Positions 10,001-17,140 of a DNA stretch of 33,115 nucleotides are shown piece after piece. A model generated the notes under the pieces. It saw only the letters and a program-made list of their open reading frames with translations, was not told the DNA's origin and did not search any database. Location: NCBI GenBank assembly GCA_947628925.1, contig CANRBU010000003.1, positions 1 through 33,115 on the forward strand, given 5' to 3'. The position numbers and the translations under genes were made by a program. The stretch is from an uncultured Clostridia bacterium. Its GTDB lineage: Bacteria; Bacillota; Clostridia; TANB77; CAG-508. Position 1 is the first letter of the stretch; each line of letters begins with the position of its first letter.

Positions 10001-13000
10001 TCATCTTGATTTCTTAGTCCTTCTAATACTGTAACTGATTGAGGATAATCGCTTTTTGCTTGTTCTGGCACAATTGCATATTCTCTTACAACTTCTGCAA
10101 AACCTTCGTCAAGTTGCTGTGTTCTAGGAGCGTCTTCATATCCGCCATGTTTTTTTACTGCTTCTAATAATTCAGAAGAAATGCTTTCTTTATCTATATT
10201 TATCCTGTTTCCTAAGTCTAAAGCATGTCCAACTTCATGAAGAACATTGTCCATATCCTTATACTCTTTTACTCTTATAACATCTCTTGTTGGTTTGTAT
10301 AGACCATATGCTCTTTCTCTAAAATGACCTTTCTTTAAGTTTAAGCCTAGATAATCTTCTATAGTTTTTCTAATGTCACTACGACTTGTTACTGGAATAT
10401 CCTCATCCCAATCGCCAGTTTTTTCAAGAAGTTCTATTTGTTGCTCAATAAATCTGTCTGATCCTTCTGCATTTGTCTTAGCGTCATTTTCTACATTGTT
10501 GTTTATATCCTCAGCTCTATAAGATTCTTTTCGTATTTCGTCATTATTGTATAAACTCAATAATGTTTGGTCTATAAAGTCATTAGGTTTTCGTTCGTCA
10601 TATGGTGTGTAAGAAGTATCAGTATTTACTTTTGACTCTTTTTGTGGTATACTTATATTAGAAGTCAAGTTGCCTCTCGTCTTGGACGTTGAACTAGGAG
10701 CATTATTGCTATTGGTTAAAGCAACGGCTTCTTTTTTATTTTTTATTGGCTTTTTCCACATAGTTTTAACGTATAAAGAGTTATTATCTAAATTTGGAAT
10801 AACCTCTACAACATATGAAATATTATCATTGTATTTTTTAATATAACGTATAGTATTTCCTTGTTTATTATCAGAGCCTTTTATAATTTTATCGTAATTG
10901 TTTATTATATCTGGTATCTTTTCTATATCTTTTACTGTAATTGCTATTTGTCCTTTTTTCTTTTCCATTTCAACATTTCCGTGTTGCTTAATAATGTGTC
11001 TTATATCATAATCTGATATAATATGATTTCTGCCAGATATATCAATACCATATAATTGTTTGACTTTATCTACAACATTTTGTGTAGCAATACCTAAAAA
11101 AGTATTTTTTCTTGAGTTTTTACTTATAAGAGCATTTTGTATTCTCTTATGTAATTCTTTTTTTATTTCTTCATTCGTTGTAGTTTGATTAGTTTTGCTT
11201 GTACTTGTCTTTGATTTTTTCATATAACGTATATCATCATTGGATGTTGGTGTTGTATTGTCTACGTTTTTAATTTGATTAGAATCAAAAGGTATAGCTA
11301 CTTGGTGTCCTATTCCTCCATGTTTGCCTCCTGTATCTAAAATACCATCATAACCATTAGCTTTTAATATATCTGTTACCCAGTCTGGTATTACAGTCCA
11401 AGCATGTGTTGTTCCTTCTTTTATATCATCATGTAATTTTTCTATCCATTTTTCAGGCTCTATATTAGATTTATCCCACATATCTGCACTATATTGTTCG
11501 CCAATCTTAGCTGTTTCTGAAGCACGTTCTAATTTTTTTATCATATCTTGTGAAATATTTGAAGTATCAAAAGGATTAGTAATGTTTAAATATACTTCAT
11601 ATACTTTACTATCATGTTTAAAAAGGTCTAAATAGGTTACATTTTCTCCTGTTACATAATCTAACACTTTTTTAAATTCTCCCATTTGCTCAGGAGTATA
11701 GTATCCACTATTTATGAATAAATCTACTAAAGCATTTATCGCGTCATTTCCATTATTTTTTAATAAATATTCGTATTCATTTCCAAAAGAATCTATAGAA
11801 GCATTATCTTTGAATTGCAAATTATAATCTTCATCAAATCCAACATTATAACCTTTTTCTCTTATTAAATTTTTCTTGTCTGTAGCTAACAATTTCCAAT
11901 AACTATCTAAACTCATATTGTTAATTTTAAATAAGTCTTTTTCTGATTCATATTCTCTTGATAAGCTTGTATCTTGCTTATCTACAGAATAATTTGTTGC
12001 AATATCTTGGTTATCTGTAAAAAAAGCCATTGGACCAGAAGTTGCTTTGTTTGGATCAAATACATTTCCAACTCTATCTGCTCTCATTGTTCCATGATAC
12101 ATTGTTTTTAAGTTACCTTTTGTATCTCTAATCTTACTATCTTTGAAAAATACTTGTTGCTGACGTGATAATTTTCTACCCTGGTTATCAACTTCATTTT
12201 GAACTTTAGTTGATTTTTTAGGTATTCTTTCAAAAGGCAAATAATCTTCGCTACTTTCCTGTGTTATAGTTTGATTATTTTGTGTATTATTTTGGTTTTT
12301 TTGCATAGACTTAGTATTATTACTACTATCATTTTTTTGACTAATAGAGTTGACATTTTTATTTTTTCGTGCTATATTAGTAGTAATAGAACTACCATTT
12401 GTTTTGGTAGCAGAGTTGGTGCGTCTAGGTAATTGTAACCTAGCCCCAGCAACTCCAGAGTTGGTGTGTCTAGGTAATTGGAACCTAGCCATATCAACTT
12501 TTTTTATTACTCCCCTATCTATGTCATATAAAATTTTATCATTTTCAAGATTCTTTTTCATGAATTCATCATAATTGTCTTTACCATAAGCACTAGTCAT
12601 TACATTTGTGTTAATTTCTACATCATTTATTTGTCCTTTACCATCTATCTTTATACTTGCTATTATTGTTCTATCTTGATTATCTGCTAAATAAGTTGTT
12701 AGTACAACGCTATCACTCCTTGTATTTGATTCTACAATGTCTAAAGGATTATTTATTGCTTCTGGAAGCTGTTTTATAATGTCTATTCCTAATCCATGAT
12801 AGTTAGCGTTAGTATCTGTTCCATTACTTTCCATTATTGTATGTAAATGTTTTTGTGTCATCGTAATTGGTAAATTAGTTAAGCCTATATCAATAAGTGG
12901 TTGAGGTGTCTTTGATAATAAAGTCAACATATCATTTTTAGAAAATGTACCTTCTATTACAGCGTCTACTTGTCTACTAAAATTTTTGATGTCTTTTTGT

Positions 13001-15651
13001 AAATCACTTTTTCCTTTTGTTTCTATTTCGTTTCCTTCAATGTCAAGTTGTCCTTCTACAGGTCTATTTTCATTAAGTGTCATTTCTTTTATTGCGTCTT
13101 GTACTGCTTGTCCTGATATTTTTCCATCAACTGCTTTTATAGTATTGCTTTGTACTACGTTTCCGTCAGTATCCCATTGTTCCACAACAACATTATCGCC
13201 TTGCTTTGACAACGCAATTGAACCTGTTTCATTTCCGTTTTCGTCATATGTAGTTACATCTGATATATCCCAGTCATAATCGTAAACATCTTCTATTTCA
13301 TCTGCCGTGTATTGTATATTACTATCAAACATGCCTATTGTTTTGTTTATATCTTGTAATGTATAGTCATGATTGCCAGTATGAAATTGACTGTCTTGTG
13401 CTTGCATATTTTCGCTTTGAGATACATTATTATTGCCAGGCATATAATTTGTTACCTCATTATTCAAATTGTCTGTATTTTGATTTACAGGTGTCTGAGT
13501 GGCAATAATATTATTGATTTCTTGTCCTAAATATTGTCTGTTTTTAATCTTATTGCTATCTATACCATAATTGTTTAATATTTGTTTTGTTTCATCAGTA
13601 GAATATAACTTATCTTGCTCAGCAATTTCTTGTATTTGATTTTCATTTGATATAACATTTTTATTATTGCTATTTTCTCTTTGTTTCATTTCAGTACTTG
13701 CTTCATTAAGTATATTTACAATATTGCTTTTAATATTGTATCTTGCCTTGCTTACTTCTTCATTAATACTTTTTACTCGTAAGTCAGATAAATTTTCTAC
13801 TTTTTCATTAAATGCTAGTTTTGCTTCCAATGCATTTTCAAAAGGTGTATCGTCTAATAAAATTCCAGTATCTTTATCAATTACATTAAAATAATCATTT
13901 TGAGTTAATACAACTACTGGAGATACATCTAAATTATTATTTTGATTTGCAAATTCTTCTCCAAATACGCTTGAAACATTTTGAATTTTCCCTTTATCAT
14001 CTGGTGAAAATTTAATATTGTAATATGTCTTTATTCCTTCTTTTTCCAATATATTGTTTTGATTAGCATTAAGTGATAGGTCTTCTTGTTGTACTATTTG
14101 TTCTGCTTGATTTACCCAATAATTTGCTTCTACATCTTTAAAATCGCCTCCACCTATACCTAACATATTCATAATTATTGTTGATAAGGTTGTCATTTTT
14201 GCTGTTTCAGTTTGTTCTTTCCACCACTGCTCAAAACTTGGTAATTCTTTATTATTTACTAGTTTATCTATAATGTAATCTAAATTGTTTTCTGTAAATT
14301 CCTCTATATTTTCGCCTATTATTCCTCGTGTTATATGAGCAATTTGTCTGCCTGCATTACTTTTGAATCTGTCAGCAATAAATTTTGTTACTCTATCTGA
14401 AATAGCTGTTCCAGGTATTTTAGTTTTACTTGTACCTCTTGTTAAAATATCTGTATCAAACATTTCTTCTGTTTTCTTAGAAACATAACCTTTTGCAGTA
14501 CCAGTTATAAAAGCCTGAACAATATTATCTGGGTTTTCATTTAAGACTTCTTGTGCAGCATTTCCACCTACAGAAATACCTTGAGCATTCGTTCCTGACA
14601 TTCCTGTTGCTGTTCCTATTGCCCAATCCGCTAACATATAAGAAATAGTACTAGATATTTCGCCAGAAGCTCTTACAAATTCATTTTCTACATTACTATT
14701 CTTAAATTCTTCATGATGAGCCTTTCCATATATAGTATTACCAGTATCTACAATGTTGTTATATAGATTATCTAAATTTTCGCCAGTTTCATCGAAACCT
14801 AAATATTTTGTTATATCAGCAACAGCTCTTATTCCTAACGCTGCTACAGTAGTCACAACGTTTGCAAATCCTCCAGCAGCAGACATTGCACCACCTTTGA
14901 TATTATTTAAAGTAGTTTCAGCCCATTCATTAAAAGCGTCTACTCCTCCTTTTTTTATATTTTCATTTTTTTGTTCAGCTTCTACTTGAGCTTTAATTTC
15001 AGATTGTTTCGTGGCAGTAAGAGGTTTAGCATTTTTTATTTCTTCCGATGTTGATAATCTCATTTCTGTTTTATTTGCTTTATCTTGTGGTGTTTGTGTT
15101 ACTGTTGGTATAGAGGATTTTTTTAACTCTTGTTCTAACTTTGCTTTTTCTTCTTCTGACATTTCTTTTTGATTACTACTTTTTGTATTATTCAATCCAA
15201 AATTTATTGATGTTTCTAAAGAATCTACACTAGCTTTAACTAAATCATCCATTTGCTCTTTTGTTAAGGTTTGTTTTTTATTTTCTTTGGTTTCTGATTG
15301 TGTAGATGTTTTTTCTATGTTTTGCTCTACTGGTGTACTATCAACATTATTTTGAGTAGTATTCCCTGTTGACAGATATTTTTTAAATTCATTACGTATT
15401 CCATCAAAATCTGTGATAAAGCCATCTTTATCTACCTGTGATGTAATATTGCCAAGGCTACCAAAATCGTCAAAAGTATCGCTATTAAAATCAATATCTG
15501 CTTCATCTACATTAAAATCCATATCTATATCATCAGGATTAGAATAAGAAATATATTTTTTAAATTCTTTTTTTATTCCTTCTGTATTAGTTATAAATCC
15601 GTCTTTATCACGTTTTTCGTCTTCGTCATCTAAAAGATAAAGTTTTGCCAT
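7066..15651 (-). CDS. Large polyvalent (probably virion-ejected) protein: MuF-C-like RNase, ART-PolyVal, PBECR-like RNase, zincin peptidase, LPD38-like C-terminus
   Basis: 2861-aa ORF. MuF-C-like ~12505-12985 (TPQPLIDIGL..LPITM..KHL...HGL...LPEAINNP...SAYGK); ART ~11220-12190 (YHGT...FFT...YLNITNP...GYDG...NQIK); PBECR3-like ~10750-11150 (IRHIIKQHG...GQIAIT..DIEKIPDII...KTMWK); HEVGH at 10225-10239 with EGFAE. Confidence 0.85.
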   Translation of the reverse strand: MAKLYLLDDEDEKRDKDGFITNTEGIKKEFKKYISYSNPDDIDMDFNVDEADIDFNSDTFDDFGSLGNITSQVDKDGFITDFDGIRNEFKKYLSTGNTTQNNVDSTPVEQNIEKTSTQSETKENKKQTLTKEQMDDLVKASVDSLETSINFGLNNTKSSNQKEMSEEEKAKLEQELKKSSIPTVTQTPQDKANKTEMRLSTSEEIKNAKPLTATKQSEIKAQVEAEQKNENIKKGGVDAFNEWAETTLNNIKGGAMSAAGGFANVVTTVAALGIRAVADITKYLGFDETGENLDNLYNNIVDTGNTIYGKAHHEEFKNSNVENEFVRASGEISSTISYMLADWAIGTATGMSGTNAQGISVGGNAAQEVLNENPDNIVQAFITGTAKGYVSKKTEEMFDTDILTRGTSKTKIPGTAISDRVTKFIADRFKSNAGRQIAHITRGIIGENIEEFTENNLDYIIDKLVNNKELPSFEQWWKEQTETAKMTTLSTIIMNMLGIGGGDFKDVEANYWVNQAEQIVQQEDLSLNANQNNILEKEGIKTYYNIKFSPDDKGKIQNVSSVFGEEFANQNNNLDVSPVVVLTQNDYFNVIDKDTGILLDDTPFENALEAKLAFNEKVENLSDLRVKSINEEVSKARYNIKSNIVNILNEASTEMKQRENSNNKNVISNENQIQEIAEQDKLYSTDETKQILNNYGIDSNKIKNRQYLGQEINNIIATQTPVNQNTDNLNNEVTNYMPGNNNVSQSENMQAQDSQFHTGNHDYTLQDINKTIGMFDSNIQYTADEIEDVYDYDWDISDVTTYDENGNETGSIALSKQGDNVVVEQWDTDGNVVQSNTIKAVDGKISGQAVQDAIKEMTLNENRPVEGQLDIEGNEIETKGKSDLQKDIKNFSRQVDAVIEGTFSKNDMLTLLSKTPQPLIDIGLTNLPITMTQKHLHTIMESNGTDTNANYHGLGIDIIKQLPEAINNPLDIVESNTRSDSVVLTTYLADNQDRTIIASIKIDGKGQINDVEINTNVMTSAYGKDNYDEFMKKNLENDKILYDIDRGVIKKVDMARFQLPRHTNSGVAGARLQLPRRTNSATKTNGSSITTNIARKNKNVNSISQKNDSSNNTKSMQKNQNNTQNNQTITQESSEDYLPFERIPKKSTKVQNEVDNQGRKLSRQQQVFFKDSKIRDTKGNLKTMYHGTMRADRVGNVFDPNKATSGPMAFFTDNQDIATNYSVDKQDTSLSREYESEKDLFKINNMSLDSYWKLLATDKKNLIREKGYNVGFDEDYNLQFKDNASIDSFGNEYEYLLKNNGNDAINALVDLFINSGYYTPEQMGEFKKVLDYVTGENVTYLDLFKHDSKVYEVYLNITNPFDTSNISQDMIKKLERASETAKIGEQYSADMWDKSNIEPEKWIEKLHDDIKEGTTHAWTVIPDWVTDILKANGYDGILDTGGKHGGIGHQVAIPFDSNQIKNVDNTTPTSNDDIRYMKKSKTSTSKTNQTTTNEEIKKELHKRIQNALISKNSRKNTFLGIATQNVVDKVKQLYGIDISGRNHIISDYDIRHIIKQHGNVEMEKKKGQIAITVKDIEKIPDIINNYDKIIKGSDNKQGNTIRYIKKYNDNISYVVEVIPNLDNNSLYVKTMWKKPIKNKKEAVALTNSNNAPSSTSKTRGNLTSNISIPQKESKVNTDTSYTPYDERKPNDFIDQTLLSLYNNDEIRKESYRAEDINNNVENDAKTNAEGSDRFIEQQIELLEKTGDWDEDIPVTSRSDIRKTIEDYLGLNLKKGHFRERAYGLYKPTRDVIRVKEYKDMDNVLHEVGHALDLGNRINIDKESISSELLEAVKKHGGYEDAPRTQQLDEGFAEVVREYAIVPEQAKSDYPQSVTVLEGLRNQDDDFNNFISTVQEQIYNYIHQTPRNRQLGNQSIGTEKVSLSKDGVKEYLVKHIWDKDYALKVVNEEFAKAQGKKASEIEASKNIYYMTRLLNGADSKAISMLTDGYIDLNGEYLFPGLNQLGEILGNDEERWNDLRAYLVAQRDLEYKAKRLKTGLRTRDSKAVIEQFSSDAEIQEAADLVHATLDGVLQYAVNNRLITQELADNLRKSNAMYVPMQRNLEDNLSSQQARKKGIKSIFNKRTGSELDIKDVLENVLDNSVKMIKQVETNNVLKSIYKSGEEAGLTGAVYDKIEAPMKKIGKQSLEMWKNELERQSIDTSKLDLDKNMEIFAPNTNVNYKELITSFIDDNGKRVYLQFYDSDVFTSLMGADQNTASTLLKITSFLNKPLRFGATTGQIGFAIPNMISDTMQAAVYSEANFIPFVDTAIGVIDVLAARNSTMQKLLKAVAPNYLEGKAELYKLYQQSGATSSKRMSQYRKSIQEQMGEVYGIKGSTLGVERKFRPLKGLMDMLSYIPELSEEATRFKVFEKNYDYYNQKGETETNARILAALQSRDATQDFSRMGTLTSEINKVIPFSAARVGSSYTFAEKIKNNPQRVGAKLGLLITLGMMIKAIGADDDEINELNQRKKDDNFVFRVGDTIITLKKPQGILRSMINLSDYIIDLASGNIDEGKEGERLEEWLKNAIMDNMPADSITGAVPSAVLPWIENAVNKDFYYNTDIVKSYDLELPNSEQYYDYNSQLAIWLGKVLNYPPAKIDNLINGYFAGLGTDFTRLIDSGLSALGVIPEKPDMGAEQDPIGKRFVVNVNSNSQSVDDIYNLKTELKQKENGGTITEKESAQLDKITQAIKQLSSINKEIKAIKADENLSGKEKADKIRILQSEKTDTARVALGKKVINENNSSKIETRKFYPSSSTLKQNGLTLEMTTAMQEEYGNIASQMYMKYKNQGLYAQDKLESKVKDYAKKYMLQKYKSQLKKVS
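10625..10653 (+). promoter_or_regulatory. Antisense sigma-A promoter inside polyvalent gene (after PBECR domain)
   Basis: TTTACT-N17-TATACT with extended -10 TG. Confidence 0.55.
10660..10737 (+). ncRNA. Candidate ~78-nt structured antisense small RNA
   Basis: 5' AGAAGTC..GTTGC pairs with 3' GCAAC-GGCTTCT, followed by a T-run; starts 7 nt after the -10 box. Confidence 0.45.
12350..12378 (+). promoter_or_regulatory. Antisense sigma-A promoter inside polyvalent gene (after MuF-C domain)
   Basis: TTGACA-N17-TATATT with extended -10 TG. Confidence 0.65.
12385..12505 (+). ncRNA. Candidate ~120-nt antisense small RNA with two repeated hairpins and a terminator
   Basis: 35-nt direct repeat (12411-12445, 12456-12490; 2 mismatches), each with a CTAGGT/ACCTAG stem inside a GAGTTG/CAACT outer stem; ends in T7. 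Confidence 0.5.
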
Positions 15652-15664
15652 TATATCTTCCTCC

Positions 15665-17140
15665 TTATTGAATATAAGATGATAAATCTACACCTATGCT
15701 TTTACCCCAATTAAGTACAATATTAGGATTTACTCCAGCAGTCATCTGTAAAGTGTATATTTTTCCATTTTTTACAACTTTTATTAATCCATCTTTTATT
15801 GAGATACTATTTGAAGTACTGTTTTTATTTGAACTATTTGAGCTACTTGAATTATTAGATGATGTTGAAGTGCTATATTTATTTTTCATTTGATACTCAT
15901 ATTCTGTAAGTTCTTTACTTCTTTGAGTTTGTAAATCACTTTCATATTTTGCAAGTTCTTTGCTTTTTTGTGTATTTAAAGCACTTTCATATTCAGCTAT
16001 TGCTTTGCTACGTTGTATATTCAAATTGCTTTCAAACTCTGCTAACCTTCTATTGTTTTCATAATCTAATTCACTCTTTAATCTTGCTAAGGCTTCTTCA
16101 TTAGCTCTTTGAATTTCAAGTTGTTCTCTCATTTTCTTTAGTTCAAACTCCTGCTGTTCCTTAGCCATACGTGCTTCTCCTGATAGAGTTCCTACAGCTA
16201 CACCTAATACTTGACTTGCTTCATTATCAACATATCCTAGCTCATCTACTCTTTTCCAAGCATTTTCTAGTGCTTTTTGTTGCTTTTCAAACTCGAACTT
16301 TTTATTTTCAAATTCTCTGTCCTTTGCGTCTTTCCAATAAGTAAATTGTTGAGTATCATAATCCATAACTAGTTGAGCTGTTGTTGCTAATTGATTTAAG
16401 TATTCCATATATCTGTCATGTGCTTTTTCTTCATATTGTGGTATAAGCTCAGATACAATTCTAGCAACTCTTTCTGCTGTTGCTGTACTATTTAAAACAC
16501 CACTTCCAGCTAAGCTTTGCAATGTGCTATTAGCTGCATATTCTGTTGCCATCTGTAATGCTGAATCCTGTGTAGGATCATATTCAAAACCTGAATTAAG
16601 TCTTTCTATCATTTGAGCTATTAAAGAGTTTATTGTATCAGCATATGCACTTTGATACTGACCTTCTACTGAATTAAGATTTGATGTTGTTGGTGTAACA
16701 ATAGTTGTATTGAAAGATGTTTTCTTTACGCCACTTGGATTGCCGTTACTTGGATTTGTTCCGTAATTGCTTTGATAACTTGAATATATATCGTTAAAAT
16801 CAACAACATTATTATTTTGTGTTCCTTGATACTGTTGTGGACTTGGAGCATTATTGCTTTGGTTAGTATTTTGTTGTGGTTCATTTGAAATAGTTGCAAT
16901 ATTATTATTTTGCCCTACATTTTGTTGTGGTGTTGAGGGAGCTACTTGAGGTTGTATTTGTATAGGTATTGTAATAGGACTTATATTTTGATTATTGCCT
17001 TGTGTAGGTTGTACTCCCTGGGTAGTATTAGCATTTGGTGTGACAGGTTGTTGATTTTGTACTTGTGCTGCATTTTGTGTAGGATTATTACTTACTTGTA
17101 TTGGTTGCCTTCCAGCTACATTTAAAAATGTATTTGGCAT
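15665..17140 (-). CDS. Putative DNA-ejection/internal virion protein
   Basis: Q/N/P-rich disordered N-terminus, long coiled coil with 15-aa repeats; lies between nozzle and polyvalent gene. Confidence 0.6.
   Translation of the reverse strand: MPNTFLNVAGRQPIQVSNNPTQNAAQVQNQQPVTPNANTTQGVQPTQGNNQNISPITIPIQIQPQVAPSTPQQNVGQNNNIATISNEPQQNTNQSNNAPSPQQYQGTQNNNVVDFNDIYSSYQSNYGTNPSNGNPSGVKKTSFNTTIVTPTTSNLNSVEGQYQSAYADTINSLIAQMIERLNSGFEYDPTQDSALQMATEYAANSTLQSLAGSGVLNSTATAERVARIVSELIPQYEEKAHDRYMEYLNQLATTAQLVMDYDTQQFTYWKDAKDREFENKKFEFEKQQKALENAWKRVDELGYVDNEASQVLGVAVGTLSGEARMAKEQQEFELKKMREQLEIQRANEEALARLKSELDYENNRRLAEFESNLNIQRSKAIAEYESALNTQKSKELAKYESDLQTQRSKELTEYEYQMKNKYSTSTSSNNSSSSNSSNKNSTSNSISIKDGLIKVVKNGKIYTLQMTAGVNPNIVLNWGKSIGVDLSSYIQ

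Follow-up and report, generated by a model that had tools for sequence, protein, structure and literature searches.

A predicted small-RNA gene antisense to the linker after an RNase-like domain of a phage polyvalent protein, and its relatives in gut phages

The described systems that come closest to the element reported here are two kinds of RNA antitoxin and one kind of immunity protein. In type I and other cis-antisense systems (bsrG/SR4, txpA/RatA, SymE/SymR, hok/sok, CopA and RNA-OUT), as these are generally described, a structured RNA is made from a strong promoter on the strand opposite its target, and its pairing leads to decay of the mRNA or stops translation; type I toxins are small, hydrophobic membrane peptides of under ~60 amino acids (aa), and a convergent overlap of the two genes is the usual layout of such systems in Firmicutes. 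Type III systems (ToxIN, CptIN, TenpIN) pair an endoribonuclease-type protein with a structured, sometimes repeated RNA, which is encoded as an array of direct repeats that precedes the toxin gene on its own strand, with a terminator between the two; the toxin cuts these repeats and remains attached to them as an inactive complex. Toxins of the Barnase-EndoU-ColicinE5/D-RelE (BECR) fold, as found in colicin E5/D, in contact-dependent inhibition (CDI) and in the BECR-Tox2/Imm2 pair, are neutralised by linked immunity proteins encoded downstream (bioRxiv 10.64898/2026.08.28.747851). The present analysis concerns a stretch of 33,115 nucleotides (nt), referred to as the window, which is the entire 33-kb contig CANRBU010000003.1 of an uncultured Clostridia bacterium (assembly GCA_947628925.1, a 1.14-Mb, 77%-complete genome bin) and carries a temperate phage. 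On the evidence of its sequence, a complete candidate small-RNA gene was confirmed antisense to the linker directly after the MuF_C domain of the phage's polyvalent protein; MuF-C is a PBECR domain, a predicted ribonuclease (RNase) with the BECR fold (Iyer et al. 2017, PMC5512222).

On this comparison the unit would act in the manner of a type I or a type III antitoxin and is a member of neither. Its predicted RNA shares with the cis-antisense RNAs the opposite-strand, structured-RNA design with a strong promoter, the residence on a mobile element, and the long imperfect hairpin with an apical loop of 7 nt and a U tail that is familiar from CopA, RNA-OUT and Sok-type RNAs. The likeness extends to gene layout in one relative (L211), where the MuF_C open reading frame (ORF) is only 199 aa long, its stop codon lies inside the unit, and the unit overlaps the 3' end of the gene convergently. 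It differs from type I in that the 'toxin' is here a domain in a 2861-aa protein (the 199-aa ORF being the shortest relative), that the RNA gene is placed wholly inside the coding sequence, in an interdomain linker, and that several units are found per gene, with a motif conserved per domain type over class-level distances. With type III it has in common the combination of an endoribonuclease-type protein and a structured RNA on a phage-related element, and in the window also two repeats at a 45-nt period. Membership of the type III family, to which the original prediction had appealed, was not borne out: the Pfam scan of the whole protein returned MuF_C, PBECR2/3, ART-PolyVal and LPD38 only, and no family of the ToxN/AbiQ type; the RNA is antisense and lies downstream of the domain coding, the wrong strand and position for type III; and most relatives have a single hairpin. 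No type III antitoxin RNA family (ToxI-like) of Rfam 15 was matched in the window; more generally, no Rfam 15 family reached its gathering score in the whole window, and matches in 11500-13500 were at chance level only (E 4-10). The immunity systems of BECR toxins follow the same logic of a toxin with a linked neutraliser and of modular exchange (bioRxiv 10.64898/2026.08.28.747851); there the neutraliser is a protein encoded downstream, whereas here there is no room for an immunity gene and the RNA is on the other strand. The host gene is typical of the polyvalent proteins with PBECR/MuF-C domains described by Iyer et al. (2017, PMC5512222), with its MuF_C, ART, PBECR3 and LPD38 domains beside virion genes. 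The passages searched in that article treat proteins only and mention neither a nucleic-acid element nor a conserved linker nor a partner RNA; 'linker' occurs in them 0 times, and 'hairpin' is used only for protein beta-hairpins. Likewise, in the literature found, apart from supplements, there was no RNA partner of PBECR/MuF_C domains and no antisense gene in polyvalent linkers.

The unit is read on the non-coding strand of the polyvalent gene as a promoter, a 5' hairpin, two copies of a conserved hairpin and a T-run (Table 1). The promoter is of the near-consensus sigma-A/sigma-70 type with an extended -10 element (TGcTATATT); it ranks at the top of the 53 promoter-like sites found in 7000-15700, a total which is not itself above chance (48.2 +- 7.4 in shuffles). 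The two conserved hairpins are direct repeats of 44 nt each, 89% identical, and each folds as CTAGGT-7 nt-ACCTAG within an outer GAGTTG/CAACT stem; both are scored by R1, a covariance model made from close relatives. The 19-nt core occurs in 2 copies in the window, against 0.02 expected, and neither the core nor the R1 hairpin has a further copy in the rest of the 1.14-Mb, 77%-complete genome. Over 12379-12510 the + strand folds at -52 kcal/mol (z -6.16, with 0/200 shuffles equal), and the last hairpin ends, by folding, 0-2 nt before the T7 run, which has its source in the final MuF_C codons (..GVIKK). Read in the sense frame, the repeat region gives MARFQLPRHTNSGVAGARLQLPRRTNS. The sole CGC codon among the 92 Arg codons of the ORF is located in hairpin copy 1 (AGA CGC ACC), where it contributes to the stem.

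Every element that the original prediction had named at this site was recovered, among them the promoter, the small CTACCA/TGGTAG hairpin, the nested fold of the repeats and their 45-nt period; the repeat length given there as 35 nt needs correction to 44 nt. The T7 run after the second repeat is in place and is terminator-like by folding, though not by a simple terminator rule that is taken up below. The duplicated linker peptide to which that prediction drew attention turned out to be a side product of the RNA element; elsewhere this element is read in different frames. The larger proposal, of a complete antisense transcription unit that travels with the nuclease module, was upheld at the level of sequence by the relatives described below, in which promoter, hairpins and T-run of the predicted unit are all conserved, with covariation.

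Table 1. Positions, strands and basis of the predicted features in the window.
Feature	Position	Strand	Basis
Antisense promoter: -35 TTGACA 12350-12355, 17-nt spacer, TG 12370-12371, -10 TATATT 12373-12378	12350..12378	+	11/12 plus TG
Predicted antisense small RNA, ~120 nt, start inferred from the -10	12385..12505	+	Fold; same layout in 13 related loci
5' hairpin SL1, CUACCA 12392-12397 / UGGUAG 12405-12410	12392..12410	+	Sequence, folding
Conserved hairpin copy 1: outer GAGUUG/CAACUC, inner CUAGGU/ACCUAG, loop AAUUGUA	12411..12454	+	R1 54.3 bits
Conserved hairpin copy 2, loop AAUUGGA; with the T-run, a terminator-like end	12456..12499	+	R1 56.9 bits
T7 run right after the last hairpin; AAA AAA Lys codons in the sense frame	12499..12505	+	Sequence
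Second, different antisense unit after PBECR3: promoter 10625-10653, RNA of ~72 nt 10660-10731, T6-A-T6 10732-10744	10625..10744	+	
MuF_C domain coding (PBECR-type, predicted RNase)	12526..12810	-	Pfam, PF18819 match
PBECR3 domain coding (second predicted RNase)	10735..11073	-	Pfam, PF18812 match
Polyvalent protein gene, 2861 aa	7066..15651	-	ORF list, translation, Pfam; neighbours terminase, portal, major head protein, integrase

A homolog search returned 122 proteins with MuF_C, and among the 120 long homologs listed ARLQLPR or a variant of it stood no more than 45 aa after the domain end in 85. DNA was fetched for 18 genome loci, 7 viral loci and 7 metagenome loci; since the patterns used lie in the MuF_C domain itself, this sample is unbiased for the linker. 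The first Arg codon of the motif was AGG in all 23 instances (17 of them distinct), while AGG makes up only 10 of the 92 Arg codons in the window ORF; the Gln codon was CAA without exception. The two Leu codons covary, TTA..TTA in some loci and CTA..TTG in others, so that the base pair is kept. Outer stems are wholly different between loci, and between the tandem copies of one locus, yet remain self-complementary. Residue changes that preserve pairing also occur (R to G in L147; L to V together with L to I in L027), and in L009, L151, L153 and several database proteins the hairpin is read in another frame altogether (GQGYNYLD or GQGSNYLD). The only near-invariant residues of the linker in alignment A1, I154 and V161, correspond to the -10 and the -35 read backwards, and among the relatives the -35 itself is read in two frames, xVN/K and MQ.

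The covariation was counted in two alignments. In A2, which holds 20 distinct hairpins, 65 cells were changed on both sides of a pair as compared to 24 +- 4.2 after shuffling (none of 500 shuffles reached 65), and controls with slid partners gave 9-18 such cells; pair 20-28 was CG in 9 hairpins, UA in 9 and GC in 2, never unpaired, and one position was always mismatched. In A4, the apical stem of 35 sequences, 41 doubly changed cells were counted against 12.7 +- 2.8 shuffled, a comparison to be read with the caveat that sequences had been selected for this set by, among other things, the pairing of their first three pairs. For both alignments, none of the 500 shuffles attained the observed count and controls with slid partners lay far lower; in both, the aligned sequences are mutually related. 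Conservation of the putative element is therefore at the nucleotide level and not at the peptide level, and the conserved 'linker peptides' ARLQLPR, SIPQ and NV are the predicted hairpin, -10 and -35 read backwards.

The strand on which the structure is kept was apparent from folding. The - strand of 12379-12510 folded at -43.5 kcal/mol (z -5.70), less stably than the + strand. The antisense fold was the stabler one in 14 of 17 MuF_C units, with 36 G.U pairs in the best antisense folds and 10 in the best sense folds, and in 10 of 10 units found after PBECR3 domains, where the corresponding numbers were 43 and 8. Such an excess of both stability and G.U pairs indicates that the antisense strand is selected, and as RNA rather than as DNA structure; together with the compensatory base changes it marks the predicted element as a structured RNA under selection. 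An element acting as DNA (an operator palindrome, a recombination site or a cruciform) was considered and rejected on account of this strand bias and of the tandem copies, which differ in their self-complementary outer arms. Mimicry of a CRISPR repeat was discarded for want of a similar repeat elsewhere in the own genome. Mimicry of a tRNA anticodon loop, which carries U33 and R37, was discarded as well, the loop having neither.

The layout was the same in 13 of 13 related loci, the antisense strand reading in each a -35 with a TG-extended -10, a 5' hairpin, the conserved hairpin once or twice, and a T-run of T4 to T8 that stands at the same place and comes from the Lys codons ending MuF_C. 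The 5' hairpin, while keeping its place, has at least two unrelated sequences among the relatives, the CUACCA/UGGUAG type or GUAGAUACA / UGUAUCUAC. Of 23 distinct related loci, 20 had a TG-type promoter no more than 120 nt from the hairpins, and two of the remaining three are loci that end too early (a smaller count of the same association gave 13/14); promoter density was 8.0 per kb by the hairpins and 0.36 per kb elsewhere in the same loci, a 22-fold difference. Loci left over from the first set also have the unit (L003, L011, L013, L014 and L021), with the exception of L023. Exact-core scans of IMG/VR gave 116 loci, 115 of them scorable, of which 11 adjoin MuF_C; at least 8 of the 13 outer pairs and a T-run within 15 nt were found in 10 of these 11, and core matches away from MuF_C are apparently due to chance, including an unrelated terminator-like palindrome (L134).

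A wider sample was drawn by a Pfam search for MuF_C in 400 genomes of the class, which found the domain in 23 and gave 24 loci outside the own genome. The pattern TTGACA-17-TAnnnT followed by an RNA of 65-110 nt was found after MuF_C in 19 of these 24 loci. Nearly all of the 19 units form a long bulged hairpin, 17 end in a T-run of at least 5, and 17 show an AAUUGNA-like apical loop on a covarying G/C stem; promoter matches reach 12/12 in L199 and 11/12 in L205, and the median fold z of the RNAs was -5.0 (n=17, the two units without a T-run of at least 5 being left out). The loci in which the unit was not found are L201, L206, L213, L214 and L216, and in L201 the covariance model does find a hairpin. 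R1 itself gave weak matches only on the class-wide loci (E 0.05-0.7), 6 of 8 directly after MuF_C, because it was built from close relatives and is too narrow for them. The predicted MuF_C-type unit is inherited together with MuF_C across the whole bacterial class of hosts.

Some relatives carry the arrangement more than once. One polyvalent gene has two MuF_C domains ~2.4 kb apart, each with its own hairpin pair (loci L009, L025 and L026; L058, L059, L093, L125, L126 and L140 on two IMG/VR contigs; protein P0018), and on G151:C4 two MuF_C domains have a unit each (L200, L215). L012 holds near-identical hairpin copies at 1830-1876 and 2236-2282, 406 nt apart, in surroundings where the frames are short (304 and 54 aa); no promoter was found there by the rule used, and this may be a decaying or rearranged copy.

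The window contains a second, different antisense unit after the PBECR3 domain. Its promoter, TTTACT-17-TGgTATACT, matches the consensus at 9/12, and its predicted RNA folds at -22.7 kcal/mol (z -2.88), with a core CGUCUUGGACGU and a CUAGGAG hairpin within a closing stem. A Pfam search for PBECR3 found the domain in 38 of 399 genomes, and wherever it was part of a long ORF, in 12 of 12 loci of other genomes, it was followed by an antisense TTGAC(A/G)-17 promoter and then an RNA, which is 70-90 nt long (163-164 nt in L156 and L157) and has a long closing stem, a core CGUYUYGGRCGU and an AGGR hairpin, with a T-run in 11 of the 12. The core is read in at least two frames (TSKT/TPEA and YVQDV/YAQNG/HARDV), and the median fold z was -4.3. 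Stand-alone small PBECR3 genes had the unit in 0 of 19 cases. Single-sequence folds suggest a three-way-junction architecture for these RNAs; a MAFFT/RNAalifold consensus failed (6 pairs, -1.9 kcal/mol).

The same arrangement was found class-wide after LPD3, where an antisense promoter and then a stably folding stretch, mostly with a long closing stem, followed 18 of 19 domain ends (rows L252, already seen, and L259, broken, were not counted). Several of the LPD3 units (L241-L261; L189 ~11685-11868; L190 ~11821-12026) share GCUAAG...CUGAAC. A profile comparison of LPD3 with MuF_C gave no similarity (probability 0.26%). ART-PolyVal served as a control, and a unit followed 0 of 16 domain ends, these being the 16 of 25 rows that match through the profile end. 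Four whole polyvalent genes of other genomes held 2-3 antisense consensus promoters each and 0 on the sense strand; at the same threshold the window's polyvalent gene holds 1 antisense and 0 sense. These antisense promoters sit just after MuF_C, PBECR3, LPD3 and some unannotated domains. Antisense consensus promoters after domains without Pfam annotation are seen at L188 7506-7576, where the unit is short and weakly structured, and at L191 609-752 and 5006-5109, the latter with a clear closed hairpin RNA and a T-run. Taken together, these results show a family of predicted small-RNA genes that are embedded antisense in the linkers after particular polyvalent domains and are selected as RNA. 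Neither GenBank phages nor PLSDB plasmids gave a DNA match to 11800-13000 or a protein-level match to the MuF_C segment; the PBECR3 segment had no match in PLSDB plasmids and 6 distant matches only in GenBank phages (Burkholderia and Rhizobium phages and one fecal contig). No cultured model was therefore found in these two collections.

Found as it is in many gut phages that are unrelated to one another, the arrangement has the look of an RNA regulator or antidote built in for the domain. The reading that we favour, if tentatively, is by analogy with type I systems: the RNA may well work by base pairing, as a cis-antisense regulator or antitoxin of the RNase module, and such an action is at least as likely as that of a decoy. 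The RNA is by construction complementary to the sense mRNA, which, together with its build like that of CopA, RNA-OUT and Sok-type RNAs and the convergent overlap in L211, we infer to count for base pairing. Host RNA polymerase would make the RNA constitutively, in lysogens as well as straight after DNA entry, and the exact complement of the product would be the stretch of polyvalent mRNA directly 3' of the part that codes for the RNase. It would pair with this mRNA, beginning by a loop-loop contact with the mirror hairpin, and the duplex would be cut or would block translation. The upstream piece of the mRNA would then have no stop codon, and the nascent RNase domain would presumably be tagged and degraded; the downstream effector domains would lose ribosome entry. 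Leaky expression of a toxic, virion-delivered effector could in this manner be kept harmless until strong late transcription outruns the RNA.

Several observations weigh against this base-pairing scheme. An antisense RNA that lies 3' of the RNase-coding part cannot stop the translation of that part, for which the tagging step is a conjectured remedy. MuF_C domains that are now only 30-50% identical still share the loop AAUUGNA and its stem, and PBECR3 and LPD3 each have a conserved RNA motif of their own; pure antisense pairing needs no conserved sequence, yet the motifs are kept, for which a specific partner that recognises them would be the better explanation. Among the 20 hairpins of the first set, the strand signal was weak (21 G.U pairs antisense and 9 sense; summed energies of -307 and -298 kcal/mol). 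The simple terminator rule found 0 terminators at the window unit, L199 or L205; it misses the hairpin with T7 because the stems are interrupted by mismatches. The toxicity or RNase activity of MuF_C is a premise taken from Pfam and from Iyer et al. (2017, PMC5512222), and as such predicted. The antisense RNA, too, is a prediction from the DNA sequence. A search for sequencing runs that contain this sequence listed 7 runs of DNA type and none of RNA, a result that has no bearing on expression.

A strong rival to base pairing is a protein-binding RNA, antidote or decoy, in the manner of type III systems, as the original prediction had it, with the structured RNA serving the adjacent RNase-like domain as a bound pseudo-substrate or inhibitor; we regard this as possible but doubtful. 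Its further parts are put forward with similar hesitation: the antidote might neutralise the domain inside the producing cell or the lysogen, or soon after an injected effector had done its work, and each domain cassette might come with its own RNA, the pair staying linked during domain shuffling. A binding partner would account for the domain-type specificity, the unit following MuF_C in 19/24 cases, polyvalent PBECR3 in 12/12, LPD3 in 18/19 and ART-PolyVal in 0/16, and for the presence of one motif per domain type (the AAUUGNA loop; CGUYUYGGRCGU with the AGGR hairpin; others) despite varying peptide and frame, although physical linkage alone suffices for the co-inheritance of domain and RNA. 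It would equally suit the unit of the 199-aa stand-alone MuF_C (L211), which has no downstream domains to silence. The tandem repetition of the hairpin in the window and some relatives is in keeping with it, but a repeat array is absent from most relatives, where there is a single hairpin. The phage T4 RNase RegB cuts at GGAG, and the PBECR3-linked RNAs show a Shine-Dalgarno-like AGGAG or AGGG in the hairpin. RegB is of the BECR fold, and early phage mRNAs are said to be its substrates (Iyer et al. 2017, PMC5512222). Protein binding is harder to reconcile with the stand-alone PBECR3 genes, which lack the RNA (0/19), and with LPD3, which is without known nuclease activity and without profile similarity to MuF_C. 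To our knowledge, no RNA antitoxin of this protein-binding kind is encoded antisense to its toxin. Known BECR toxins, moreover, are neutralised by immunity proteins (bioRxiv 10.64898/2026.08.28.747851). We rate it as less than likely that the unit represents something categorically new, an RNA antidote that acts on BECR-type RNases by binding the protein.

A more general proposition, which we would also advance only with reserve, is a domain-level immunity on the opposite strand, in which, in injected polyvalent effectors, the C-terminal linker of each RNase-like domain overlaps the gene of a dedicated structured RNA that would bind the domain and silence it. It might cover MuF_C, PBECR3, probably LPD3 and some unannotated domains, an extension that we hold as loosely; and its RNA would perhaps, to put it as guardedly, be made by host polymerase at once from incoming DNA and continuously in lysogens.

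It is unlikely that the antisense RNA acts elsewhere, as a trans regulator of a host or phage target, in superinfection exclusion, or by transcriptional interference with read-through of the late operon. The strong, constitutive-looking promoter and the conserved apical loop would suit such a role, and in related incoming phages, the mRNAs of which carry the mirror hairpin, the core would find its complement in the same region; exclusion would, however, select for loss of the core in incoming phages, yet the core is kept. In the 33-kb phage genome the 19-nt core has no other matching site on either strand with up to 3 mismatches, nor has it any further copy in the own genome, and the restriction of the units to sites after particular domains would be left unexplained.

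Less probable by far is an element of the sense mRNA, in which the A7 run (A AAA AAA) and the long hairpin would make a programmed -1 frameshift or pausing signal. The run and the hairpin do follow one another in sense order in the window, the A-run is kept in most relatives, and the sense strand folds well (z -5.70); since the -1 frame of the window reads AGT TGA (sense, 12499-12512), a slip into that frame would stop the protein directly behind MuF_C. The -1 frame of homologs, however, has no immediate stop. Frameshift signals usually leave 5-9 nt between the slippery run and the hairpin, whereas here the hairpin begins only 0-2 nt past the A-run, and the second hairpin copies have no slippery run at all. 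Furthermore, the antisense fold is the stabler one in 24 of the 27 units, the G.U pairs favour the antisense strand in both families, and the conserved antisense promoter would go unexplained.

The notion of a mere peptide motif (ARLQLPR and the like), for instance a cleavage or docking site in the linker, with promoter and hairpin as side effects of AT-rich codons, is scarcely credible and close to refuted: its recurrence after MuF_C, the shared frame of most copies and a peptidase that is thought to cut polyvalent proteins into domains (Iyer et al. 2017, PMC5512222) speak for it, and are outweighed by the rare AGG codon used without exception, the covarying synonymous positions, the residue changes that preserve pairing, the alternative frames, the -35 read as both xVN and MQ, the 22-fold promoter enrichment at this position and the strand-specific excess of G.U pairs.

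The contig on which the unit was found encodes, as parts of the temperate phage, small and large terminase subunits, a portal, a major head protein, tail proteins, an M23-type peptidase and an integrase. The Pfam domains of the 2861-aa polyvalent protein are MuF_C (residues 948-1042), ART-PolyVal (1346-1469), PBECR3 (1527-1639) and LPD38 (2500-2680). An AlphaFold model of MuF_C with the linker had a mean predicted local distance difference test (pLDDT) score of 38, too poor for checking or comparing the fold. Between PBECR3 and LPD38, where no Pfam domain was called, the ORF has an HExxH motif (..LHEVGHALD..), as has the zincin-like peptidase by which polyvalent proteins are said to be processed (Iyer et al. 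2017, PMC5512222). A gene for a MazF-like growth inhibitor is also present in the phage's early region (30638-31054, - strand; phrog_1936, E 6.7e-26).

What look like conserved 'linker peptides' in polyvalent proteins would be the promoter, hairpins and terminator-like end of small-RNA genes that run on the opposite strand and are invisible to gene-centred annotation and to motif searches confined to intergenic DNA. There appear to be at least three such predicted RNA families (those of MuF_C, PBECR3 and LPD3), each tied to one domain type and widespread in gut Firmicute phages, and they make a clear natural case of dual coding, in which one strand encodes a protein linker and the other a structured RNA. 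Should the RNA bind its domain, it would represent a new class of toxin and antidote, a BECR-type RNase with an RNA encoded in cis and antisense, and would explain why no separate immunity gene has to accompany toxic domains when they are shuffled from one polyvalent gene to another. These predicted genes offer a first handle on how multi-toxin effectors stay harmless to the cell that produces them or carries them as a lysogen.

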